From positions 31,708 through 95,707 of the forward strand of contig CAJOHU010000001.1 of NCBI GenBank assembly GCA_905234465.1: DNA of 64,000 nt, written 5' to 3'. Every line of letters starts with the position of its first letter. Position 1 is the first letter of the stretch. The translations under genes and the position numbers were made by a program. The stretch comes from an uncultured Alphaproteobacteria bacterium (GTDB lineage Bacteria; Pseudomonadota; Alphaproteobacteria; Rs-D84). Below the pieces are notes generated by a model, which ran no database searches, was not told the DNA's origin, and saw nothing but the letters and a program-made list of their open reading frames with translations. Of the stretch, positions 1-45,258 are shown piece by piece.

Positions 1-665
1 TGTCTGTGTTTACATTGTGGCTGTATCAGAAAAAGAATGGCGGAACTGTTCCATTCCTTAATGCGCCCGCCGATGGCATTATTGAAGAAGCAGAAACAAA
101 ACCTGTGGATACACCGATGGTTGATGATACAGATACTGCGCGTGATTTGCCTTTGCCGGAACCGATTGTGGAACCAGAGATTGAACCTGAAATTGAACCT
201 GAACCTGTTGTTGAACCGGAACCTGATGTGCCGGTTGTGATAGACAAACCGATTGAGGTCAGATACCCTAATGATAATATTTTGCAGGCGGCGGCACCGG
301 ACGCACGCGTGATAGAATCTGAAGAAGATGTCATTATGCGCAAGACGGCATATGATGTTGCGCGGGAAGATAAACCCATATATGCGCCGACACCACGTGT
401 GACGAATGTGATTGCCCCCGATGTTATTTTTGATGATGACATTATTTCTGTACCTGTTGCGCCGGTAAACTATACGGACGATGTTTATTACGAAGATGAA
501 GACGTGTATTATAATGGCGGATTCCAATATGAACAGAATGTAAATCAATCTGGTGGATTTGTGTCGGAACCGGTGTATCAGCAAACGGAACCCACGGTGC
601 AAAAACACCTTAGCATTCATGATGGTGGTCAATACAGTATTGGTTACACCGAAACAACATATTAA
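1..665 (+). CDS. hypothetical protein, C-terminal fragment (5' end outside the window). It contains a Pro/Glu-rich spacer (EPEIEPEIEPEP), like the linkers of TonB/TolA-type proteins.
   Basis: The ORF-track frame is open to the window edge (the GTG at 6 is probably internal). The repeat composition is visible in the translation. It is followed by a hairpin terminator. Confidence 0.5.
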   Translation, partial: SVFTLWLYQKKNGGTVPFLNAPADGIIEEAETKPVDTPMVDDTDTARDLPLPEPIVEPEIEPEIEPEPVVEPEPDVPVVIDKPIEVRYPNDNILQAAAPDARVIESEEDVIMRKTAYDVAREDKPIYAPTPRVTNVIAPDVIFDDDIISVPVAPVNYTDDVYYEDEDVYYNGGFQYEQNVNQSGGFVSEPVYQQTEPTVQKHLSIHDGGQYSIGYTETTY

Positions 666-692
666 AAAACGCACCGAACGGTGCGTTTCTTT
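666..692. terminator. bidirectional rho-independent terminator hairpin (aaaacgcaccg-aa-cggtgcgttt + T-run) between convergent genes
   Basis: Inverted repeat GCACCG/CGGTGC followed by TTTCTTTTT. It sits between the stops of two convergent ORFs. Confidence 0.5.
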
Positions 693-1070
693 TTATTCTT
701 TTTCAATGACAACCATTGCGGCGGAAAAATTTTCTTGATCTGTGATAGACAGGTGTACACGCGCGGTTATTCCTGCCAATTCTTTCAGTGCCGCCCGTGC
801 GCCACCGGCAATCAAGATTTCTGGGTGACCGGCATCGTCATGAATAACCGATATATCAGAAAATGCGATTTCTTCGCCAAACCCCGTTCCCATGGCTTTC
901 AGACATGCTTCGCGTGCCGCCCAAAAATTTGCCAGGTGTTTTTCGGCGTTTGCATTATCTGCGTCTGCGTATTCTAATTCTTTTTTTGTAAATATCCGTT
1001 GCTTTTTAAATGCGGACCAATCCAAGAAGCGTCCTGATTCAACCAAATCTATACCGATGCCAACAATCAT
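693..1070 (-). CDS. acpS: holo-[acyl-carrier-protein] synthase (4'-phosphopantetheinyl transferase)
   Basis: The translation from MIVGIGIDLVE...FTKKE...AAREACLKA...HLSITD matches the AcpS family signature. The size (~126 aa) fits once the internal Met start is used. Confidence 0.8.
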   Translation of the reverse strand: MIVGIGIDLVESGRFLDWSAFKKQRIFTKKELEYADADNANAEKHLANFWAAREACLKAMGTGFGEEIAFSDISVIHDDAGHPEILIAGGARAALKELAGITARVHLSITDQENFSAAMVVIEKE

Positions 1071-1237
1071 ATCTGTTTCCTCCCTTGGGTATAAATATAT
1101 TAATCTGATACGGGAATATAGAAACTTTTTTCCGATTCGTGCAAGCACAAAATTAGAAAAAATAAATTAAGATAAAAAAATTGTTGTATTTTATAATTAT
1201 TATATTATATAATGGTTTTGAATCAAAGGAGTAAAAC

Positions 1238-1510
1238 ATGAAAAAATCAAAACTTTTATTAACAGTGTGTGCGGTTGTGGCGTGTTTGGCGGCTGGTTCT
1301 GCGAATGCGGCACCGGGACATGGCGGGCATAATCATATGCCATCTGGTCATGTTGTGACGCATGTTCATAACGCACCGCGTCCGGGGCACCATACGCATC
1401 ATCATGGTGGACATCATCATAATAATCAGGTTGTACATCATTACCATCATAGTAATAACACAGGCAGTTTTATATTGGCGACAGCGATATTGATATCTGC
1501 ATTAATATAA
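1238..1510 (+). CDS. small exported His-rich (about 25 % His) protein with a C-terminal hydrophobic segment. Putative periplasmic metal-binding or storage protein.
   Basis: Signal peptide MKKSKLLLTVCAVVACLAAGSANA. His-rich runs follow: HGGHNHMPSGH...HHTHHHGGHHHNN...HHYHH. The C-terminal hydrophobic tail is SFILATAILISALI. Upstream is an AT-rich promoter-like region (tataat-like) and an RBS-like aaaggag. Confidence 0.6.
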   Translation: MKKSKLLLTVCAVVACLAAGSANAAPGHGGHNHMPSGHVVTHVHNAPRPGHHTHHHGGHHHNNQVVHHYHHSNNTGSFILATAILISALI

Positions 1511-1615
1511 AATGAATTTATTAATTAATTATAGAAAACCGCTGTTAGCGGTTTTTTTATGTATTAAAAAATATTTGAGTTTTTTGTAATATTAGTTTAG
1601 TATACTTTGCGTCGT

Positions 1616-1692
1616 CGGGGCGTAGCTCAGCCTGGTAGAGTACTTGCATGGGGTGCAAGGGGTCGCAGGTTCGAATCCTGTCGCCCCGACCA
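1616..1692 (+). tRNA. tRNA-Pro (anticodon GGG)
   Basis: Cloverleaf folded by hand. Acceptor stem CGGGGCG/CGCCCCG. U8. D-stem GCTC/GAGT. Anticodon stem CTTGC/GCAAG with loop AUGGGGU (anticodon GGG, G37). T-arm GCAGG-TTCGAAT-CCTGT. Discriminator A then CCA. Confidence 0.85.
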
Positions 1693-1700
1693 TAAAATTA

Positions 1701-1730
1701 AAAATGACCCCAAGGGGCATTTTTAATTTT
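1701..1730 (+). terminator. hairpin + T-run downstream of tRNA-Pro
   Basis: aaaatgaCCCCaaGGGGcattttt. A short GC stem flanked by an A-run and a T-run. Confidence 0.4.
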
Positions 1731-1833
1731 ATCGCCGCGTAGCGGTAGATGCGAACCGTAGGTGCGAAACCAAGTAGATTTCACAAACAAAGTGCGGTGA
1801 AATCGTCACGGGTTGCGCGAAGGCATTTATGCC

Positions 1834-1936
1834 GAGCGAATACGAAAATACACAATTAGAAAAATCAAAAAAATCGCAGGAACGAGATTTTTACAGATTT
1901 TTATTATTGTGTATTGAGGAAATGTCGCCCCGACCA
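1834..1936 (+). repeat. 103-bp direct repeat, copy 1. It ends in a 14-nt copy (tgtcgccccgacca, 1923-1936) of the tRNA-Pro 3' end (att-like).
   Basis: Identical to 3034-3136 except for about 8 mismatches. The 14-mer is identical to tRNA positions 1679-1692. Confidence 0.9.
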
Positions 1937-2106
1937 CGAAATTCAAACCCGCCACTAAGGGCGGTTTTTATTTTGTATTCCAATATCTTCGCTGAGTTCG
2001 AGAATTAAGTTTTTGGGAAGCGCTATTTTTGACCCGTTTTCGAACTTTTTAAGAAAAAAGCTTAGAAGCCTAACCTTTTTCATGAGTTCGAATTTATTGT
2101 ATTTTT

Positions 2107-2616
2107 TTATTCTGATACTTTAGAAACACGATTGTAAACTTCCATAAGTTTTTCTCTAGATATTAATGTTTCGTGTTCTTCTTGTGTCATAATAGCAGCA
2201 ATTTGATATTCTTTTTTGCCCTGATGTGTAGCATCTATTATTTCATTTAATTTGCAATCACCATCTATTTTTGCACGATTAAAATTATATGCACCATTTG
2301 CAGGGTCTAAAAGCTGTAATCCATTTGACATTTTTACAGCAATAATTTGATGTCCATTCATATGCTGTTTACCAATATCAGGAGTGTAAACGCTAACAAC
2401 AACATAAACATCTTTGATACCTGCTTCTTTTGCATACTTTGCAAATAAATTAGCACGACCAGAACATCCAACTACATAAGATGGTATTTTATACTTATCT
2501 ATTTCATCAGCAGAAAAAGAAAACATATTTTGATTTGGTTTTATTTGATGTTTTGCATCTCGCAACCACAAATTACGGTAGAAAAATTCGTCATCGCTAT
2601 TTTCTTTTATTTTCAT
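2107..2616 (-). CDS. hypothetical protein with a conserved Cys...His...Asp pattern (possibly a papain-fold or transglutaminase-like peptidase). It appears to be separated from an upstream in-frame signal/TM segment (2677-2802) by a TAA.
   Basis: ORF of 169 aa. The in-frame upstream segment encodes MKKVIIIAIIVILGIVGYFL... (ATG at 2802) and is interrupted by the TAA at 2676-2674. Motifs: VVGCSGRANLF, HMNGHQIIAV, LLDPANG. Confidence 0.45.
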   Translation of the reverse strand: MKIKENSDDEFFYRNLWLRDAKHQIKPNQNMFSFSADEIDKYKIPSYVVGCSGRANLFAKYAKEAGIKDVYVVVSVYTPDIGKQHMNGHQIIAVKMSNGLQLLDPANGAYNFNRAKIDGDCKLNEIIDATHQGKKEYQIAAIMTQEEHETLISREKLMEVYNRVSKVSE

Positions 2617-3033
2617 TTGCTTGTAATTTTCTGGTATAACATCAGCAGAAATAAAGAAATCATCTACTCGTTTTTAAACAGTATCTAATCTTTCAACAAT
2701 TTGTTGGTCAGTTAAGTTTTGTTGGTGTCTGTTTGAAGATATAAGAAAATATCCAACTATTCCCAAAATTACAATTATTGCGATTATTATGACTTTTTTC
2801 ATTTTTTATCCTTGTTTCTTATGGATATATTTTATCACTTCTTCAACATCTTGTCCAATCTTGATAATATCGGCTCGAGAATTGCTAATTAAGCACGACC
2901 AGAATTAAATAAAAGACCACGTAAAGTGGTCTTTTATTTAATTCCAAGGGGCGACAGGATGCGCCAGAATGGCAACGGCACAATAAGTGCCGTTGGAAAA
3001 CGAAGTTTTCGTGGGCGGACCACAGACATGCAT

Positions 3034-3136
3034 GAGCGAATACGCAGATGAACAATTAGAAAAATCAAAAAAATCGCAGGAACGAGATTTTTGCAGATTT
3101 TTATTATTGTGTATTGAGGAAATGTCGCCCCGATCA
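3034..3136 (+). repeat. 103-bp direct repeat, copy 2 (exactly 1200 bp from copy 1). It ends in a variant 14-mer tgtcgccccgaTca (att-like).
   Basis: Direct sequence comparison with 1834-1936. Confidence 0.9.
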
Positions 3137-3167
3137 TTGACCCATTGGGTCATTTTAAATTTAACAC

Positions 3168-4847
3168 TTAATCTTTCTTAAAAGCGTTTTTAATTTTTTG
3201 TATTGCATCGGTGTTTATGGCGGTGTTACCAATTACGCCGACGGCGGTACCACCAATTGCGACACCTGTACCAATTTTTTTGTTTTGCTCAGATTCTTGT
3301 TTTTGTTCTGCCCATGCGATTGCGTCTTCGCTGGTGCTGTACATTAATGCACGTGATACAGATACATTATCGCTGCTTTGGCGTTCCGCAGGGTTATATG
3401 AATATAAATCATAATCGGCGCGGTCATAAATTGTTTCAGATTCAATGCCGGGTTTTAACCCCAATGCCGCTTTGGTTTTTTTCAATTCGCCCGCCATATT
3501 TTTATATTCTTTGGCATATTCTGATATTTCATCGCCACCCGGCAAATAAATGGTTTCGGTGCCAACATTAAATACTTGGCCGTCACCATATTCGCATTTC
3601 ATTGTGTCAATCCATTCCCGCATATCAGATTCAGCTTTGGCATCTGCCGACTGTTCTGCCATCGCGGTTGCGACCATTCGCGCACCATACCCCGTTGCCG
3701 CAGATGCCCCAGCATTAACCAAGCGATTACCCAAAGAATTTTGTTTTTCGCGCGCATCGGCAAGTTTCTGTTGCGCGTCGGTAAGTTTTTGTTGTGCCGC
3801 GTCGATATCTGCTGCTGTGGGTTGTGGTTGTACAACAGGTTCTGGGGTCGTTTCTTTTTGTGTCGCCTCTTCTCTTTCTTTCTGTGTGGCATTGCTGTCA
3901 CTGTGGATATATTCGGATTTTGATTCCTGGCTTGCTTTTTGACTGACCATTAAGATCTGACTTTCGTCTGTTTGTCCCCATACCGGCATGTTTTCTATGT
4001 TGTCGCATATATTCTGGTTCAAATAAATATAGGTCGTGTTTCCCACGGTTTCATTGTTGTGCGCGCAGGTTTGTACCTCTTCATAACAAAAACTTTCTAT
4101 CGCGTCGGAACCAATTGCCTTATTACGATATAAGAAACCCAGAATATGCGTTTTGTCTGTGTTCATAATTTGTTTAGTTTTTGATGCATCGTTGAATGGA
4201 CGGCTGTCCCCAGGAACACCCGTTAATGATCCGCGACACCATTCAATGTCACTTATATCAAGTGCGGTCCATGTGCCCTCTTTTGTGGTTTGATCAACCT
4301 GGCATCTGTAGAGTCTGTTATCAATACCCAATACATAGGTGCCAGTGCCACAATCTTTATCGCTGGAAAAACCGCCGCAATAAAGCCATTTATGATCCGG
4401 ATTTTCAAGTACACCGGTTTTTGAGGAATATGTATCTTGTGGTATGCAATTAAGATTATCTATCTCATAGGTAATGTTAACAGAAGTATCTTTGTCGCAC
4501 CAAGCAACCATGTGCGTTGGAAAATTGTCACTAAAATTAGTAAAAGGATAATGTATTGTCATATCACATGTGTCATCATTCTCCAATATTCCTATCTGTC
4601 TTTGCCGCTGTGCTTGGGTACATGTATCAAGCAAATTATGATCTATCAAATATACTTGACCCCTTGCGGGTCTTGCTACCTTGGTCAGTTGTGTACAGTT
4701 GGTTATTTTTTCTGATACATCATTGGTAAACCAGCAAAAAGGACTGTCTTTGCTTTCGCAATGCATTGAAAATTGCGACTGTACTGAGTCAGCAAAAACG
4801 GGCACCGACAATAATATTAAATAGGCGGCAAATAAAAACTTTCTCAT
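3168..4847 (-). CDS. secreted/tail-anchored hypothetical protein. It has a signal peptide, a Cys-rich N-terminal region, a central coiled-coil (QQKLTDAQQKLADAREKQ) and a C-terminal hydrophobic Gly-rich segment.
   Basis: 559-aa ORF. N-terminus MRKFLFAAYLILLSVPVFA. More than 14 Cys in the first 300 aa. C-terminus IGTGVAIGGTAVGVIGNTAI. No recognisable catalytic motif. Confidence 0.65.
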   Translation of the reverse strand: MRKFLFAAYLILLSVPVFADSVQSQFSMHCESKDSPFCWFTNDVSEKITNCTQLTKVARPARGQVYLIDHNLLDTCTQAQRQRQIGILENDDTCDMTIHYPFTNFSDNFPTHMVAWCDKDTSVNITYEIDNLNCIPQDTYSSKTGVLENPDHKWLYCGGFSSDKDCGTGTYVLGIDNRLYRCQVDQTTKEGTWTALDISDIEWCRGSLTGVPGDSRPFNDASKTKQIMNTDKTHILGFLYRNKAIGSDAIESFCYEEVQTCAHNNETVGNTTYIYLNQNICDNIENMPVWGQTDESQILMVSQKASQESKSEYIHSDSNATQKEREEATQKETTPEPVVQPQPTAADIDAAQQKLTDAQQKLADAREKQNSLGNRLVNAGASAATGYGARMVATAMAEQSADAKAESDMREWIDTMKCEYGDGQVFNVGTETIYLPGGDEISEYAKEYKNMAGELKKTKAALGLKPGIESETIYDRADYDLYSYNPAERQSSDNVSVSRALMYSTSEDAIAWAEQKQESEQNKKIGTGVAIGGTAVGVIGNTAINTDAIQKIKNAFKKD

Positions 4848-4938
4848 CTCTCTAATCTAAAACCCTTTGCCCTATTCTATCAAATTTCAATTTTTGATAC
4901 AAGAGAAAAATTGGGCGAGTGGTTATCCGCCTTCGCCG

Positions 4939-4958
4939 CTAACCACTATCACTAACAC
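4939..4958 (-). repeat. copy of the dispersed 'GTGTTAGTG(A/G)TAGTGGTTAG' repeat family (reverse orientation)
   Basis: ctaaccactatcactaacac is the reverse complement of the motif seen at 13437, 37060 and 39424. Confidence 0.7.
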
Positions 4959-4964
4959 CGATTC

Positions 4965-6674
4965 CTACATCTCGTTTGGGACCTTTAACCCCATTAAATC
5001 TAGTGTCTTGGTTAATACATCAACCGCAATCTTTACCAGCCCCAATCGCGCATTGCGAATTTCCGCCGGTACATCTTCGCGTAATATCGGACAATTATGA
5101 TAGAATGTGTTCACCATTTGGCATAAATCGTATGCATAGTTTGCAACCAAATCAGTCGCGCGTTCGTTAAATGCCGACTGAATCGTCCGGTCAAAATCTA
5201 ACAGTTCCATAATCAGATTACGTTCGTCTGAACACATTTCCGTGATAGCCGTCGCCGAAAAATCGCCCGCACGCCGCAAAACAGAATTTAATCGCACTGC
5301 TGTATATAATATATATGGACCGGTGCGACCTTCAAATGATGTGATTTGCGCCGGGTCAAATATATAATCCGATTTTACATCGTGCAACAAATCATTAAAC
5401 TTTACCGCCGCCAACGCAATCGTTTGTATTGTGTCATCGTCTAATTTTTTATCAAATTCTTGCACCCGCGCCCGCACAGCATCATTCGCAATGTCAAATA
5501 TGTCGTCCAATCCCGCCGCATTGCCATCACGCGTCTTAAACGGTTTGCCGTCCGCGCCATTTATCGTGCCGTACCCAATGTGTTCAAATTTATCATACGG
5601 GTATATGCCCGACATGTCCGCCACACGGAACAGTTGTTCAAAATGCAGGCTTTGACGCAAATCTGTGAAATAAATAATCTTGTCTGGGTTATCGGTTTTT
5701 TTGCGACAATAAACAGCCGCCAAATCAGTGGAATCATAAGTGTCCGCCCCGCGAGAATCGCGCCACATGTACGGTGGCATGGGCTTGTTATCTGTGTCGC
5801 GTTTAACATTGATTATCTCTGCCCCATCATTTTCATAAATCATATTCTTTTCACGTAAGATTTTTTCCACAGAACCAAGATATTTTGCCGCGTTCCTTTC
5901 GCCTAAATCATAGTCAAATGGTAATATGTTTAACCGGCTTACCGTTTTGTTCATGGTGCGTAAAGATATTGCCAAAAACTTTTCATACAGTGCGAAATAC
6001 CCCGGGTGACCCGATTGAAACTTTGCCTTGATTTCTTGGGCGTGTGATTGGAATTCTGGGTTTTCTTTGGCAAACGCAGATGCCGCCGGATAATAAGTAT
6101 TTAATTCTTGTTCGTCTATTTCAAAATCAACAGGTGTATTCGGATTAAAATCATCCCGAAAATACGGTAATTCTGGGTGCAGGCGTTCAATCCACGCAAT
6201 AACCAATCCCATGGGCTTTCCCCAATCGCCAATATGGTTCCACGAAAATGTCTTGTGCCCCAAAGATTTCGCAATACGATTAAAAGTATCCCCAACAATA
6301 GATGTTCGCAAATGACCGATGTGTAAAGATTTTGCAACATTGTATGCGCCATAGTCCATGTCAATGATTATCGGTTTTTCCGCCGGTGTAATTTGTGCGG
6401 CGGTTTGTGCCGCATGCCACAAAAAATCATCTTTGATTGTCAAATTAATAAACCCAGGTCCCGCAACAGATGCAGATTTTACAAAATCCAGTTCATGAAT
6501 TTTTGGCAATATCTCGCCCGCCAATTCTCGTGGATTTTTGCCCGCAGATTTCGCCATCACCATCGCGGCATTCGTAGAAAAATCCCCGAATTCACGGTTG
6601 CGCGGTGTTTCCAATTTTGCGGCAAACCCAAGTTTTTCGTTTATTTTCTCAGACACATATTTGTATAGGTTCAT
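4965..6674 (-). CDS. argS: arginine--tRNA ligase
   Basis: 569 aa. Class I motifs: HIGH-like SLHIGHLRTS and KMSKS-like region. Full-length similarity to the ArgS architecture, including the N-terminal Arg_tRNA_synt_N and the C-terminal DALR anticodon-binding region. Confidence 0.9.
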   Translation of the reverse strand: MNLYKYVSEKINEKLGFAAKLETPRNREFGDFSTNAAMVMAKSAGKNPRELAGEILPKIHELDFVKSASVAGPGFINLTIKDDFLWHAAQTAAQITPAEKPIIIDMDYGAYNVAKSLHIGHLRTSIVGDTFNRIAKSLGHKTFSWNHIGDWGKPMGLVIAWIERLHPELPYFRDDFNPNTPVDFEIDEQELNTYYPAASAFAKENPEFQSHAQEIKAKFQSGHPGYFALYEKFLAISLRTMNKTVSRLNILPFDYDLGERNAAKYLGSVEKILREKNMIYENDGAEIINVKRDTDNKPMPPYMWRDSRGADTYDSTDLAAVYCRKKTDNPDKIIYFTDLRQSLHFEQLFRVADMSGIYPYDKFEHIGYGTINGADGKPFKTRDGNAAGLDDIFDIANDAVRARVQEFDKKLDDDTIQTIALAAVKFNDLLHDVKSDYIFDPAQITSFEGRTGPYILYTAVRLNSVLRRAGDFSATAITEMCSDERNLIMELLDFDRTIQSAFNERATDLVANYAYDLCQMVNTFYHNCPILREDVPAEIRNARLGLVKIAVDVLTKTLDLMGLKVPNEM

Positions 6675-14294: not shown

Positions 14295-17200
14295 ATGTCC
14301 ATATTTCGCAGGTTTTTTGGCGTTTTAACAATCGCATTTTGTTGCGTGTTTGCCGTACATTCCGCATGGGCAAATTTTTACATCACCACAACAACCACAG
14401 GCTATTATCAACATGCTCCTACTGTATGCATAAAAGCCAAGGGTTCGTTTTTTGTTGATTGGGGTGACGGGGGAACTGATTCCTGTCATAATTCAATAGT
14501 AAAAAGTTGCTGTAAAACTCATACTTATTCAGATAATAGCATATCCCACACTGTAGAGATAAGTGGGCAACCAACAGAGTATGCTGACTATACCAATGCC
14601 ACTTTTGATGCTCAGCCAACAATAGCATTTTGCAATTGGGGCAATCCTTATCTTTTCCATTGTGCGGCGCCCTGGGTGGCGGGCATATCTGGGTCTATTG
14701 GTGAAATTTTTCCGACACTTGGTAATGGAAATAACCCAGGGCAACAACCATCGTTTAGCCATACATTTGGCAGTATGCCCAATTTAACCGGCACTATACC
14801 CGCTAATTTATTTAATGGGGTTCATGGAACGCCTGTGCGGTGGATGTTTAGCAATTTGTTTTTTGCCGATACGGGTTTGACCGGCAGTATACCGTCAAAT
14901 TTATTCAGTGGTATTACGGGTACGGCTGTCGGGGCATTTGCACATGCGTTTGGGAGAACCACCCATTTGAATTGCCATGTCCCGGCGGGTTTGTTTCATA
15001 ATATAGTGGGCAATGTTCCTCAGAGTATGTTTTATGAGACTTTTGCGGGTAGTCCGGAAAATGGACCGGATGATGGTTTTTGTACAGAAAGTGGCACATA
15101 TGGTTGGATAGCGCCCGATGCGTTTTCTATATCTCGCTTGTATGGCACGCCTTTTTCTAATTATCAAATGTATCGGATGTTTTATAAGTCTGGTCTGGCA
15201 CAAAGTTGTCCAAGTGGTTATACCCAATGGGTGACGGGGTTTGAAGACGATTGGGATGGTCGCAAGGCGTGTGTCCCGTCAAGTATGACACTTACGACCA
15301 ACTGCGGGGAAGGAACCGGTAACGGCACAAGTATGAATGTTTCATATAATGATAATGTAATTGTGGGATCCCCTTCGTCTTGGGGTTGTACTGCACCGGC
15401 GGGCGAAACATTCAGTCATTGGGCGGTGTCAAACAGTACAGACACATATAACGCAGGTCAGCAGTTTAATTGGCACTATGTACAAAACAAGGTGTTTACA
15501 GCCGTATGGGAAGGACATTATTATAATTTCGCGTTAAATCATAAAGACGGATCAAACAATGTGAATACGGTTTATGAAAAATACAATACCGGTTGGGCGA
15601 CCAGTGCAAATGCGTCTTCATGGAATTGGAATATGATTCTTCCACAAGATACTGTGCGCGATGGATACACTTTGCGTGGTTATTATGATTATGATTTTGG
15701 GGATGTAAGCAGCAATGATACTGTAAGTGAAACAGAAGCGTATTATCATATGAAAATTAAGTATGATAGTAGCAGCAGTGGGTGGAAACTGCCTGCGCCA
15801 ACTCAGGCGCCGGGTGCCACATGGTATGCGGCATGGGCGCGTAATTGTGCACCGGTTGCGCCCGCAACATGCAGTTTACAAATTGCTCCGCACACTGGTT
15901 CTGTGACGTACGTCACCACGTGTCCGGAAGGATATAATAAAGTCAATGGTACTTCATACAACCCGAGTTGTACGCCGGTGGGTGTGACAATTACTTTAAA
16001 TAATAATGATGCCACATCGGCGGGAACGACCAGTTTGACAACAGCGTACGGTGTCGGGGTTTATCTTGATGGTACTTTGATGACCACAAGTGGTCCTTCA
16101 ATTACCAAACCGCAAAAGCAATTTACCGTCACTTATTATGCCCAGGGCGGAACGATGACCGGTGGCAATTCAAGTATCACGCAAACCGCAACATCCACAT
16201 TTGATGGGTATTATTATGCCGAGAACAATAATGCACCTGTCCAGGTCATTGATGATGATGGATATATAACAACCAATGGTGATACGATTGGTAAAGAGTA
16301 TACCACCAATGCAACATGGACGGCGCAATGGTCGGGGGGGGCGGTCACTTTGCCGAATGCCCAACGTCCGGGGTGGACGCTGGTGGGGTGGAAAACATCG
16401 GGAAATTGTGGTGGGTCATTGGCAGGTACCCCGGGGCAGCACTATACCCCGGATGGAAATATAATGTTGTACGCATGTTGGACAAATGTGCCATATTATA
16501 TAATCACATTGGCCGATGGGTCTTATAATGATATTATACAAAACGGCATGATTACCGGGACAAATGGTGGCTGTACCAGGGCCGGGTTGCAATATGGTCA
16601 AGGTTGGCTGAATATATGCGATGCCCCATTGCGTGGTGCGCTGTCGCTAAGCCAGATTCCAAAACGACCAAACCATGTGTTTAATGGATACTGGGCGGAA
16701 TTGGCGGGTGGCGCGTCGGGCGTAGATAGCCAGGTCGTTACCAAAGACGGCGAATTTTGGGAAACAAGCGAGGTTTTAAATGGATTTGTGTCCGATTCAA
16801 CGATTACCGCATATTGGCAACCAAAATATCTTATAACGCTTAATCCCAATGGCGGCAGTGGTGGTGACACATCTATATATGAAGGATATGGGGTTGGTTG
16901 GTCAAAAACACAAAATGGTGATTATACTGATACTATAACAGTTACTAAACCACAAAGAACGGGCTATACATTTAGTGGATATTATGATGATCCGAATTTT
17001 GGTATAAAATACATTCCTCGCAGTGGTGTGGTATCATTAAGTCCTGCAACATTTTCAACACCAAAGACACTGTATGCACATTGGTCCCCGCGGAGATATA
17101 CCATCACATTAAATGATAATGGTGGCAGTGGCGGTCAGGTCGGTGACGCGTCGTCACACTGTACCACAGCCGACTTGGTGTACGGTACCCGTTGGGAAAA

Positions 17201-43862: not shown

Positions 43863-44324
43863 ATGACAGAAGAAGAAGTAAGTATTATTCTTGCCGGCAT
43901 ATTAAAACATTGGAAAACATTAAGTCCCGCTGAACTTAAAAGTCTGTTAAAGATTCTTATTGTTCGTGGTGATTTGCCGATATGTCCGGCGTGCAAGCAA
44001 CCCATATTAACCATTCAAGACAATTCTTTTGATCATGTTATTCCTGAATCTAAGGGTGGACCAACCGAAGCCGGGAATCTGCAACCTATGCATAAATGGT
44101 GCAATGTGGAAAAAGATGATGAAATATACGAACAATATTTTTGCCATGTTGATCCGGAACTGTTGGCACAGATGATTAAACAAGGCAAAGCCAAAGGTTC
44201 ACATGTGGCACGCAAATCTAAACAAAGATATGATAATGAACCCAAGGGACGTCGCAATCATGTTCGTATAAAGGGCGGTTGCGATATGACATCTTTTAAC
44301 AACAGCAATGGTCGTCACAGATAA
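43863..44324 (+). CDS. free-standing HNH endonuclease-domain protein
   Basis: CPACKQ...FDHVIPESKGGPTEAGNLQPMHKWCN has a C-x2-C, then H, N and H in HNH spacing. 153 aa. It lies 60 bp upstream of tRNA-Gly. Confidence 0.7.
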   Translation: MTEEEVSIILAGILKHWKTLSPAELKSLLKILIVRGDLPICPACKQPILTIQDNSFDHVIPESKGGPTEAGNLQPMHKWCNVEKDDEIYEQYFCHVDPELLAQMIKQGKAKGSHVARKSKQRYDNEPKGRRNHVRIKGGCDMTSFNNSNGRHR

Positions 44325-44384: not shown

Positions 44385-44458
44385 GCGGGCGTGGTATAAT
44401 GGCAGCACGAAAGCTTCCCAAGCTTTAGACGAGGGTTCGATTCCCTTCGCCCGCACCA
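44385..44458 (+). tRNA. tRNA-Gly (anticodon CCC)
   Basis: GCGGGCG...anticodon loop TTCCCAA...GAGGG-TTCGATT-CCCTT-CGCCCGC-A-CCA. Near-identical in acceptor, anticodon and T arms to the canonical bacterial tRNA-Gly(CCC). Confidence 0.85.
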
Positions 44459-44555: not shown

Positions 44556-44573
44556 TTCCCTTCGCCCGCACCA
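44556..44573 (+). repeat. 18-nt exact direct repeat of the tRNA-Gly 3' end (ttcccttcgcccgcacca), 98 bp downstream of the tRNA. Att-like remnant.
   Basis: Direct comparison with 44441-44458. Confidence 0.85.
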
Positions 44574-44682
44574 TCCGCCTTCGCTTAGCGCTGCGGCAGC
44601 GATTTTGTGCCACACCCCGCCGGTTTCGCTGATATGGCAGATTTTATAAAAAGACATTGTCGATAAACAAAAGGTAAATAAA

Positions 44683-45258
44683 ATGACAAATAATGATAAT
44701 TATGCAAAAAAAGAAATACAATCTGATGACCCAATAATTCAAAAATGTTTGGATATTATTCGTAATCCAAAAGCCTGGGTATCAGATTTAGCCGATGCCG
44801 GCTATTACACTGTACATATTGGTAATAAAGAATATTTTACGTTTAATAAAATATGTGCTTTTGGGCTAGGCACAAAATACAAAATTACAGTGAATGTGCA
44901 AGATTATAATTTTAGTGGCGAAAGACCGGATTTGGAAGATTTGCATAGATTATGTGTTGCCAAATATAAAGAACAATCACAAGAAAGGGAAAAGAATACA
45001 CTGGATTTTTTGAATGATGTCGACAAAGCCCAAAAGGCGAATAAAAATAATGGTACCGCGACGTTTGTTTTGTTGATGGGATTGGCGATAGCGGGTATTA
45101 TCAGTCCTGCTGTGATACGTGGCATACAAGAGAAAAAAGCGCAACGCGTGAATAAACAGGTCGAAGCATTTGAAAAAACTTTGCCGGCAGAGTACTTGGA
45201 ACAAAAACATGCGGTTGAGCATTATCGTGATAGTTTAATGCATGTCAAAGGACGGTAA
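44683..45258 (+). CDS. hypothetical protein (191 aa, one TM near the C-terminus)
   Basis: ORF with AT-rich upstream region. Hydrophobic segment ATFVLLMGLAIAGIISPAVI. Confidence 0.5.
   Translation: MTNNDNYAKKEIQSDDPIIQKCLDIIRNPKAWVSDLADAGYYTVHIGNKEYFTFNKICAFGLGTKYKITVNVQDYNFSGERPDLEDLHRLCVAKYKEQSQEREKNTLDFLNDVDKAQKANKNNGTATFVLLMGLAIAGIISPAVIRGIQEKKAQRVNKQVEAFEKTLPAEYLEQKHAVEHYRDSLMHVKGR

Follow-up and report, generated by a model that had tools for sequence, protein, structure and literature searches.

An element that integrates into a transfer RNA (tRNA) gene reconstitutes that gene and leaves behind its original 3' fragment, now displaced (PMC4383910), and integrase-less elements that are bounded by attachment (att) sites can accrete in tandem (PMC5704250). 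The usual explanation for insertion hot spots at tRNA genes is kilobase-scale elements with an integrase of their own. In the 64,000-nucleotide stretch of an uncultured Alphaproteobacteria bacterium that was analysed here as a whole (hereafter the window; contig CAJOHU010000001.1, positions 31,708 to 95,707), an intact tRNA-Pro(GGG) gene (1616-1692, plus strand) is followed by an array whose units of exchange hold one gene or none. This array, the interval 1693-3136, consists of three modules (termed M1, M2 and M3), which we read, with a probability of roughly 0.5, as integrase-less mini-modules that were inserted serially and site-specifically at the 3' end of the tRNA gene and mobilised in trans. 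They belong to a family of miniature integrase-less cassettes that are structured, vary between strains and occupy several tRNA genes; the family is previously undescribed in the literature that we found, in which no equivalent was encountered, and it is most aptly classed with tandem accretion at tRNA genes, as a variant of it.

Tandem accretion has been described for ICESt1-type elements and for the integrative and mobilizable elements (IMEs) of streptococci, where cis-mobilizable elements (CIMEs) hold integrase-less DNA between direct repeats of the target 3' end, stack in tandem and presumably receive their integrase from another element (PMC5704250). The array likewise shows direct repeats of the target 3' end, a syntenic empty site and no integration or transfer genes of its own. 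However, CIMEs are kilobase-scale, decayed integrative and conjugative elements (ICEs) or IMEs with recognisable parents (PMC5704250), whereas the modules of the array measure 235-965 bp and no recognisable parent element was found for them. Moreover, their units without an open reading frame (ORF) appear conserved and structured, and one family serves at least five tRNA genes. Tycheposons of Prochlorococcus also form variable islands beside tRNA genes, including tRNA-Pro, that are subdivided by partial tRNA copies from successive integrations and carry small cargo differing between co-occurring cells, but they are kilobases long and encode a tyrosine recombinase and replication genes (primase/helicase) (bioRxiv 10.1101/2020.12.28.424599), none of which is present in any array here. 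The ends of the tRNA-gene islands collected in Islander are marked, as in the array, by a regenerated tRNA gene and a displaced direct 3' fragment; however, Islander requires an integrase for each island (PMC4383910), and its filters would discard the modules both for their size and for the missing integrase. Arrays of at least three were recorded there only 4 times among 3919 islands (PMC4383910). Finders of islands, integrons and mobile genetic elements would in general miss such arrays, because they require an integrase or an attC site.

The tRNA-Pro(GGG) gene was identified by ARAGORN and by Rfam (RF00005, 60.5 bits), and a core search located the copies of its last 14 nt, TGTCGCCCCGACCA. 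This 14-mer is exact at 1679-1692 (core copy 1, within the tRNA gene) and at 1923-1936 (core copy 2), and recurs with one mismatch at 3123-3136 (core copy 3, C to T at 3134), as had been noticed in an earlier reading of the letters made without database searches (hereafter the sequence-only reading). When up to two mismatches are allowed, five matches occur in the window against 0.22 expected, a count equalled by none of 100 shuffles. All three copies are in direct orientation, and the tRNA gene is regenerated and intact. Core copies 2 and 3 close two 103-nt direct repeats (1834-1936 and 3034-3136; termed R elements), each of which encloses a long imperfect palindrome. Their coordinates and start-to-start spacing of 1200 agree with the sequence-only reading, but their identity is 94% (97/103) rather than about 92%, and the spacing equals the combined length of M2 (965 bp) and M3 (235 bp), with no significance of its own. 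Hairpins follow the core copies at 1693-1731, 1949-1964 and 3138-3152; the latter two, which had been described as belonging to the downstream copies, were recovered as terminator-like by a terminator scan. A fourth junction, AAGCACGACCA at 2891-2901, has its final 6 nt in common with the tRNA and is directly followed by a perfect 19-bp hairpin (2902-2944), and an inverted 13-nt copy, GGGGCGACAGGAT at 2948-2960, mirrors ATCCTGTCGCCCC in the 3' region of the tRNA. Every module starts directly after ...CCA with a terminator composed of an A-run, a hairpin and a T-run, and closes with a repeat of the tRNA end that spans its final 6 nt (CGACCA) or more.

M1 (1693-1936, plus strand; 244 bp) is an ORF-less unit, termed type 1, composed of the hairpin T1 (1693-1731), a structured segment X1 (1732-1833) and the first R element (copy a, 1834-1936, plus strand), the end of which is core copy 2. 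This R element comprises GAGCGAATACG, the long imperfect palindrome and the tRNA 3'-end copy, and scores 113.7 bits against the R covariance model; the fold of M1 has a z of -4.2. Units homologous to M1 stand singly behind tRNA-Pro(UGG) in the related loci L015, L033 and L038, and are present also in L023.

M2 (1937-2901, plus strand; 965 bp) is a cassette with a single cargo gene and a GC content of 0.308, the ends of which are conserved around other cargo in L001, L025 and L065. The conserved left end (1937-2106, plus strand) is 80-91% identical to those of L001, L025 and L065. It contains the bidirectional terminator T2 (1949-1964, from the terminator scan), the motif GAGTTCGAG (1994-2002, with an inverted motif at 2037-2046), an A-run/hairpin/T-run read by eye at 2054-2080 that would terminate the cargo gene, and the motif GAGTTCGAA (2084-2092), with both motifs taken from the motif table. 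The conserved right end (2803-2901, plus strand), which carries the motif GGCTCGAGAATTGC and closes with the junction at 2891-2901, is 86% identical to L025 7934-7999, and L065 ends likewise. Between the two ends lies the cargo gene (2107-2802, minus strand), the sole ORF longer than 71 aa within 1693-3136. It corresponds to a membrane-anchored protein and is, in line with the sequence-only reading, a single disrupted gene: an in-frame TAA at codon 43 (2674-2676) makes it a pseudogene, and intact homologs from elsewhere (P0001-P0019) have 228-233 aa and 79-96% identity. Searches of the cargo proteins against Pfam, NCBIfam, PADLOC and PDB sequences gave no match informative on function. With a GC content of 0.296 in the cargo interval versus 0.423 in the whole window, the pseudogene and M2 are of foreign composition. 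Just upstream of the cargo start, on the minus strand (2857 to 2829), is the best promoter-like site of the region (TGGACA-17-TAAAAT, 10/12 with TG); owing to this site of its own and its terminators, M2 looks expression-ready.

M3 (2902-3136, plus strand; 235 bp), an ORF-less unit of type 3, is formed by the 19-bp hairpin T3 (2902-2944), the inverted tRNA copy (2948-2960), three small hairpins up to 3033 and the second R element (copy a', 3034-3136), which ends in core copy 3. It is regarded as a separate module because the 2902-3136 piece directly follows the tRNA in L001, where its counterpart is 87% identical, and because the 2891-2901 junction recurs between cassettes in L025 and L065. 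Compared to L001 and L010, M3 has a 4-nt deletion that shortens one hairpin; this deletion, the stop codon in the cargo gene and the C-to-T change in the last core mark the distal modules as decaying in the window. The hairpin T4 with its T-run (3138-3152, plus strand), which was found by the terminator scan and is identical in L068, separates the last core from the stop codon of the next gene and belongs to the flank, not to a module.

The empty site sought among relatives was found in L069, a sister lineage with the order acpS, His-rich ORF, tRNA-Pro(GGG), 120 nt, a 620-aa ortholog of the 559-aa secreted protein gene that follows the array in the window (3168-4847, minus strand), and argS. 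The flanks of L069 are 87-88% and its tRNA 97% identical to the window, without any core repeat or match to M1, M2 or M3; relative to this unoccupied site, the array is an insertion. Of the two tandem or nested insertions considered in the sequence-only reading, the place at the tRNA 3' end is thereby supported, whereas the number is not, as the modules are three. The proposal that the 3168-4847 gene had arrived together with the islet was not borne out: the gene has a native GC content of 0.419, there is no core copy beyond it, and it is assigned to the ancestral flank because its ortholog stands 120 nt from the tRNA at the unoccupied L069 site.

Strain variants, taken as contigs that encode exactly the same flanking proteins, revealed that modules are reshuffled within one species. 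In L001, a strain of the same species, the flanks are 98.5% and 96% identical to those of the window and the array is different, consisting of a type-3 unit, an ADP-ribosylglycohydrolase cassette with a left end 91% identical to that of M2, and an R unit with another version of the palindrome. The T3/X3 sequence is preceded by AAGCACGACCA in the window and by the tRNA's own GTCGCCCCGACCA in L001, which places the boundary exactly after ...CGACCA. The same modular organization is seen in L025, a metagenome-assembled genome of a buffalo-rumen Alphaproteobacteria bacterium, where tRNA-Pro(UGG) is followed by a 198-bp unit, a type-3 unit and a haloacid dehalogenase (HAD) hydrolase cassette with M2-like ends that finishes with AAGCACGACCA, and in L065, where tRNA-Pro(UGG) is followed by two cargo cassettes with AAGCACGACCA between them. 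The second cassette of L065 holds the cargo gene of the window in intact form, at 94% identity. All of the short-read assemblies L002-L005, L010 and L068 break within the tRNA or the R palindrome, so that array variation is systematically lost from metagenome assemblies and under-sampled. A supposed one-module strain, pieced together from the left junction of L003 and the right junction of L068, was dropped, since the argS of L068 is only 78% identical and the two contigs need not share a genome.

The module family occurs across a clade of rumen and gut Alphaproteobacteria, behind at least five tRNA genes: tRNA-Pro(GGG), tRNA-Pro(UGG), tRNA-Glu(UUC), tRNA-Glu(CUC) and tRNA-His. The cargo gene of the window is 85-94% identical at the nucleotide level in other genomes behind tRNA-Pro(UGG), tRNA-Glu and tRNA-His. 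Homologs of it lie downstream of tRNA-Glu(UUC) in L066 and of tRNA-Glu(CUC) in L067, and just downstream of tRNA-His(GUG) in L055-L063, where the array has the same layout and the 3' end of tRNA-His is copied at the close of an ORF-less unit of ~230 bp. At least six modules are lined up behind tRNA-Glu(UUC) in L064, with four cassette right ends that are homologous to that of M2 and finish with GGCCCTGCCA; in the tRNA-Glu arrays of L064 and L067, the cassette right ends close with GGCCCTGCCA or GGCCCTGCTA. The R-bearing type-3 unit of L064 starts with an inverted copy of the tRNA-Glu T arm and ends with 20 nt of tRNA-Glu. In this locus (L064 8117-9855), the housekeeping gene tyrS and its leader are framed by a cassette-type left end (after the tRNA-Glu) and a right end finishing with GGCCCTGCCA, as if they were inside a cassette.

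The termini of the modules match the resident tRNA, over the last 6 nt in general (CGACCA for Pro, CTGCCA for Glu) and over 13-20 nt in R-bearing units. The inverted tRNA copy exists in three versions (GGGGCGACAGGAT, GGGCGAAAGGAT and CGGGTTTGAACCGGGAT), each agreeing base by base with its cognate tRNA; for instance, the tRNA of L025 reads CCTTTCGCCC and its unit GGGCGAAAGG, compared to CCTGTCGCCCC and GGGGCGACAGG in the window. In addition, the cassette ends contain three or four copies of a short motif, which is TTCGA in 19 of 20 cases in the Pro type and TTCGT in 24 of 27 cases in the Glu type. This switch of the motif with the target class, together with the matched ends, suggests cognate DNA-binding recombinases encoded elsewhere in the genome, and GAGTTCGA(R)AA may serve as a candidate recombinase-binding motif.

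The ORF-less units were aligned for conserved structure in sets of 4-9 sequences, with structures predicted on the plus strand and statistics that are indicative rather than conclusive. The type-3 alignment A3 (four units: three Pro and one Glu) has 13 compensatory pairs out of 64, compared to 5.3 +/- 1.6 in column shuffles; none of 500 shuffles reaches 13, and slid partners give only 1-5. In the type-1 alignment A4, 14 of 67 pairs are compensatory; R by itself has 20 consensus pairs, four of them compensatory. The R palindrome retains its outer stems, but its centre is one or the other of two unrelated palindromic sequences; GAGCGAATACG and GAGGAAA flank the palindrome. Highly conserved unpaired stretches in the units include AGGTTCGAAACCAAGTAGATT and GAGCGAATACG. 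The consensus fold energy is -41.6 kcal/mol on the plus (tRNA-sense) strand versus -23.9 kcal/mol on the minus strand, and for R it is -15.2 versus -9.9 kcal/mol. G.T wobbles outnumber A.C by 21:3 and 10:3, a count that is biased by the plus-strand prediction. On these alignments, M1 and M3 are best described as members of conserved structured families. Of the view of the interval as a degraded islet, the cargo pseudogene and the missing integrase stand, but the ‘non-coding DNA’ is not decayed filler.

The R element is confined to such sites in the sequences searched. Its central 24-mer has only two occurrences in the 64-kb window, and covariance-model matches in 264 kb (the window and ~200 kb of related loci) are found only at mapped tRNA-end junctions, not at the many non-tRNA loci expected of a generic dispersed repeat. 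The REP/BIME-like type of dispersed repeat (repetitive extragenic palindromic sequence or bacterial interspersed mosaic element) was rejected on the same grounds. A strict R pattern occurs at one place in each of three related species among 185,579 GTDB representatives and on two JGI metagenome contigs; its remaining GTDB and JGI matches are chance matches in high-GC DNA.

Under the favoured reading of serial insertion, the modules would have entered one after another at the very 3' end of tRNA-Pro(GGG), each bringing a terminator proximally and a tRNA-end copy distally, so that the tRNA gene would be rebuilt and terminated after every insertion. M1 and M3 would be att-site-only units (~240 bp) with conserved folded segments, and M2 a one-gene expression cassette. 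A complete lambda-type attP also has a size of ~240 bp. We infer that a tyrosine recombinase supplied in trans mobilises the modules, with the crossover falling in the last 6-7 nt: the 6-nt identity of the cargo-cassette ends would fit the overlap region of such an enzyme, and the target-class motif would fit arm-type binding sites that co-evolve with cognate enzymes. If moved in trans, the modules would constitute a compact gene-shuffling platform in small-genome Alphaproteobacteria, and the R hairpin, the tRNA-matched termini and the TTCGA/TTCGT motif provide defined DNA sites for finding the responsible recombinase.

Several findings weigh against serial insertion in trans. Recombinase searches covered phage, plasmid and viral collections as well as the window and the related loci; the latter two are parts of genomes, so that absence is not to be read as genome-wide. 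Within this scope, no recombinase stands beside any of ~10 related arrays, including the cassette genes as judged by Pfam, and no integrase-bearing parent element (ICE, IME or prophage) was found in the phage, plasmid and viral collections or beside the related arrays. The stretch that cargo cassettes have in common with the tRNA is just 6 nt long, less than would be usual for a conventional att core. The strand-asymmetric conservation of structure in the ORF-less units is not required by a double-stranded att site. Finally, behind tRNA-His the cargo gene is not accompanied by the conserved left end, and therefore this gene can also move independently of the cassette frame.

Because the structure is strand-specific and inverted and direct tRNA copies are paired, folded single-stranded substrates of the kind known from integron attC sites and CTX phage have to be weighed, as does a role as RNA. 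In the former case, the ORF-less units would be folded single-strand sites on the tRNA-sense strand, and a structure-specific recombinase encoded elsewhere would insert cassettes after CCA; the inverted copy at the start of a type-3 unit would pair with the direct copy at its end as a duplex mimic of the tRNA-gene target, and the R hairpin would take the role of the attC stem. The far stabler plus-strand folds, the excess of G.T over A.C, the compensatory changes above controls, the faithful tracking of the cognate tRNA, the swapped inner palindrome with its outer stems kept and the presence of one cassette family at five different tRNAs would all fit. We nevertheless hold this to be rather unlikely: the cargo cassettes and one ORF-less unit (L025 6599-6796) have no R, the closing helix is short (6-9 bp) and, in the Glu version, weak, no IntI-like gene, GTTRRRY core or attI/Pc arrangement was seen, and the strand asymmetry, drawn from small alignments predicted on the plus strand, fits RNA equally. 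The sites known as attC have R''-L''...L'-R' cores (RYYYAAC / GTTRRRY); judged against this consensus rather than an attC model, the module ends are not such cores but tRNA 3'-end copies (...CGACCA). The array does resemble integron arrays and clusters of attC sites lacking integron-integrases (CALINs) in its mostly single-gene cassettes, non-coding cassettes, arrays without a neighbouring integrase, and candidate sites that are long imperfect palindromes with conserved structure and variable centre (PMC8876359, PMC3053210). Unlike integrons, it lacks IntI, attI and Pc, is anchored on a tRNA gene end, does not have a palindrome in every cassette, and bears cargo cassettes with promoter-like sites of their own that mostly point to the anchor (PMC8876359, PMC3053210). 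An integron-like capture system specialised on tRNA gene ends is unlikely as well, if worth keeping in view; here a recombinase encoded elsewhere would insert mini-cassettes after CCA by reading the R hairpin and the helix of inverted and direct tRNA copies as folded single-stranded sites, with the target set by the tRNA-matched terminus and the arm motif (TTCGA for Pro, TTCGT for Glu). As for RNA, M1 and M3 could be genes or 3' trailers of structured non-coding RNAs linked to the tRNA, in which the tRNA-end copy would be a processing or stability signal and the array would have grown by local duplication. Structure conserved on the tRNA-sense strand, the conserved unpaired stretches AGGTTCGAAACCAAGTAGATT and GAGCGAATACG and an acceptor-stem-like closing helix with a 3' ACCA tail point that way, yet a strong terminator opens each unit, no plus-strand promoter-like site was found, and Rfam gave no match to the units at E up to 1. 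The presence, order and number of units vary between strains, the units are absent in L069, and cargo cassettes with the same junction logic would be left unexplained, which makes this the least likely of the explanations considered.

Two further explanations dispense with an active integration system. The array might be the inert, decayed remains of one or two integrase-bearing islands, with the repeats as fossil attL, internal att and attR and the rest as drifting junk; this would account for the cargo pseudogene, the mismatch in the last core, the 4-nt deletion in M3 and the lack of an integrase, and such remnants are common in tRNA-linked islands (bioRxiv 10.1101/2020.12.28.424599; PMC5704250). 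It is quite improbable given that the units are conserved in at least four lineages with compensatory changes, that module order and combination vary within one species, that cassette ends are conserved around unrelated cargo in several species, and that none of the arrays holds an integrase fragment. Homologous recombination by itself would be another route, with RecA-dependent swaps via transformation or a gene-transfer agent, the tRNA, R and cassette ends serving as homology arms and the tRNA-end repeats being relics. It is the mechanism by which the minimal mobile elements of Neisseria are defined, and these likewise hold different whole-gene cassettes between conserved flanks depending on the strain and have no mobility genes (PMC3082526). 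Those elements, however, have no specific junction and homologous recombination suffices for them (PMC3082526), whereas the junctions of the array fall exactly at the tRNA-like CCA and its ends are target-matched. Conserved ends around variable cargo and the lack of any recombinase in our searches agree with such swaps. So does L068, in which the 3' 700 nt of the 559-aa gene and the hairpin T4, beside the array, are 96-100% identical to the window although the adjoining argS reaches only 78%; the flank next to the array appears to have passed locally between lineages, and homologous exchange probably also operates around the array. As the sole explanation it is very doubtful, since it cannot put one cassette family behind five tRNA genes with tRNA-matched termini and gives no account of module boundaries exactly after CCA.

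The searches behind these comparisons were negative in the following respects. No integrase or recombinase was found by Pfam in the interval or among the 35 ORFs of the window, as the sequence-only reading had stated for the interval, and a regular expression for the tyrosine-recombinase catalytic motif had no match in the window and 13 loci. A blastn search of 1616-3170 against 72,556 plasmids and 50,697 phages matched the tRNA only. Pattern scans of IMG/VR with the R element, the Pro-type cassette end and the Glu-type cassette end gave no match. Rfam 15 over 1-6000 at E up to 1 found the tRNA only, with other hits far below gathering scores. In L055, a P4-type integrase gene (14421-14690; Arm-DNA-bind_3 and Phage_integrase domains, 402 aa) is truncated where the locus ends. 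It is located after a release-factor gene (PCRF/RF-1 domain), ~6.4 kb distant from the tRNA-His array and on the side facing away from it; no tRNA was found to adjoin the integrase gene within the locus.

Other kinds of element were considered and rejected. A miniature inverted-repeat transposable element (MITE) or an element derived from an insertion sequence (IS) does not fit, as the module termini are not mutual inverted repeats and the identity at their flanks consists of direct tRNA-end copies, which range from 6 to 20 nt in length. The termini and these direct copies of variable length are also at odds with an IS200/605-type element, a Tn7-like end, an XerCD/dif site and a tRNA pseudogene. 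For a permuted transfer-messenger RNA (tmRNA), ARAGORN makes no call and the termini do not fit, and an RNA-templated origin of the CCA junctions, by tRNA-primed reverse transcription, found no support, with no reverse transcriptase seen.

In the window, the array has acpS, the His-rich ORF, the 559-aa gene and argS as its neighbours. The His-rich ORF (1238-1510), which lies between acpS and tRNA-Pro and is kept in all strains and in L069, encodes a secreted protein of 90 aa with H runs and HxH; it has no family match. The 559-aa gene is mosaic, with variants of 620 aa (L069 6001-7863) and 921 aa (L068 6001-8766) that contain CarboxypepD_reg domains.

A similar repeat is present at tRNA-Gly(CCC) (44385-44458), the last 16 nt of which, CCCTTCGCCCGCACCA, recur at 44558-44573 beyond a 99-nt ORF-less insert; a second tRNA gene in the genome is affected in the same way. 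An HNH endonuclease ORF (43863-44324; Pfam HNH, E = 3.7e-9) is located immediately upstream of this tRNA. The gene after the repeat (44683-45258) shares a C-terminal domain, at 43% over 67 aa (E = 5e-11), with the 89-aa gene of an L065 cassette (1797-2066, behind tRNA-Pro(UGG)), and may be the cargo of the tRNA-Gly islet. The 120-nt trailer of L069 (7864-7983), which begins with TCCGTCTTCGCTTCGC...GCGATTTT, resembles window positions 44574-44610 after the second tRNA-Gly core, and the two may represent another recurrent tRNA-trailing element.

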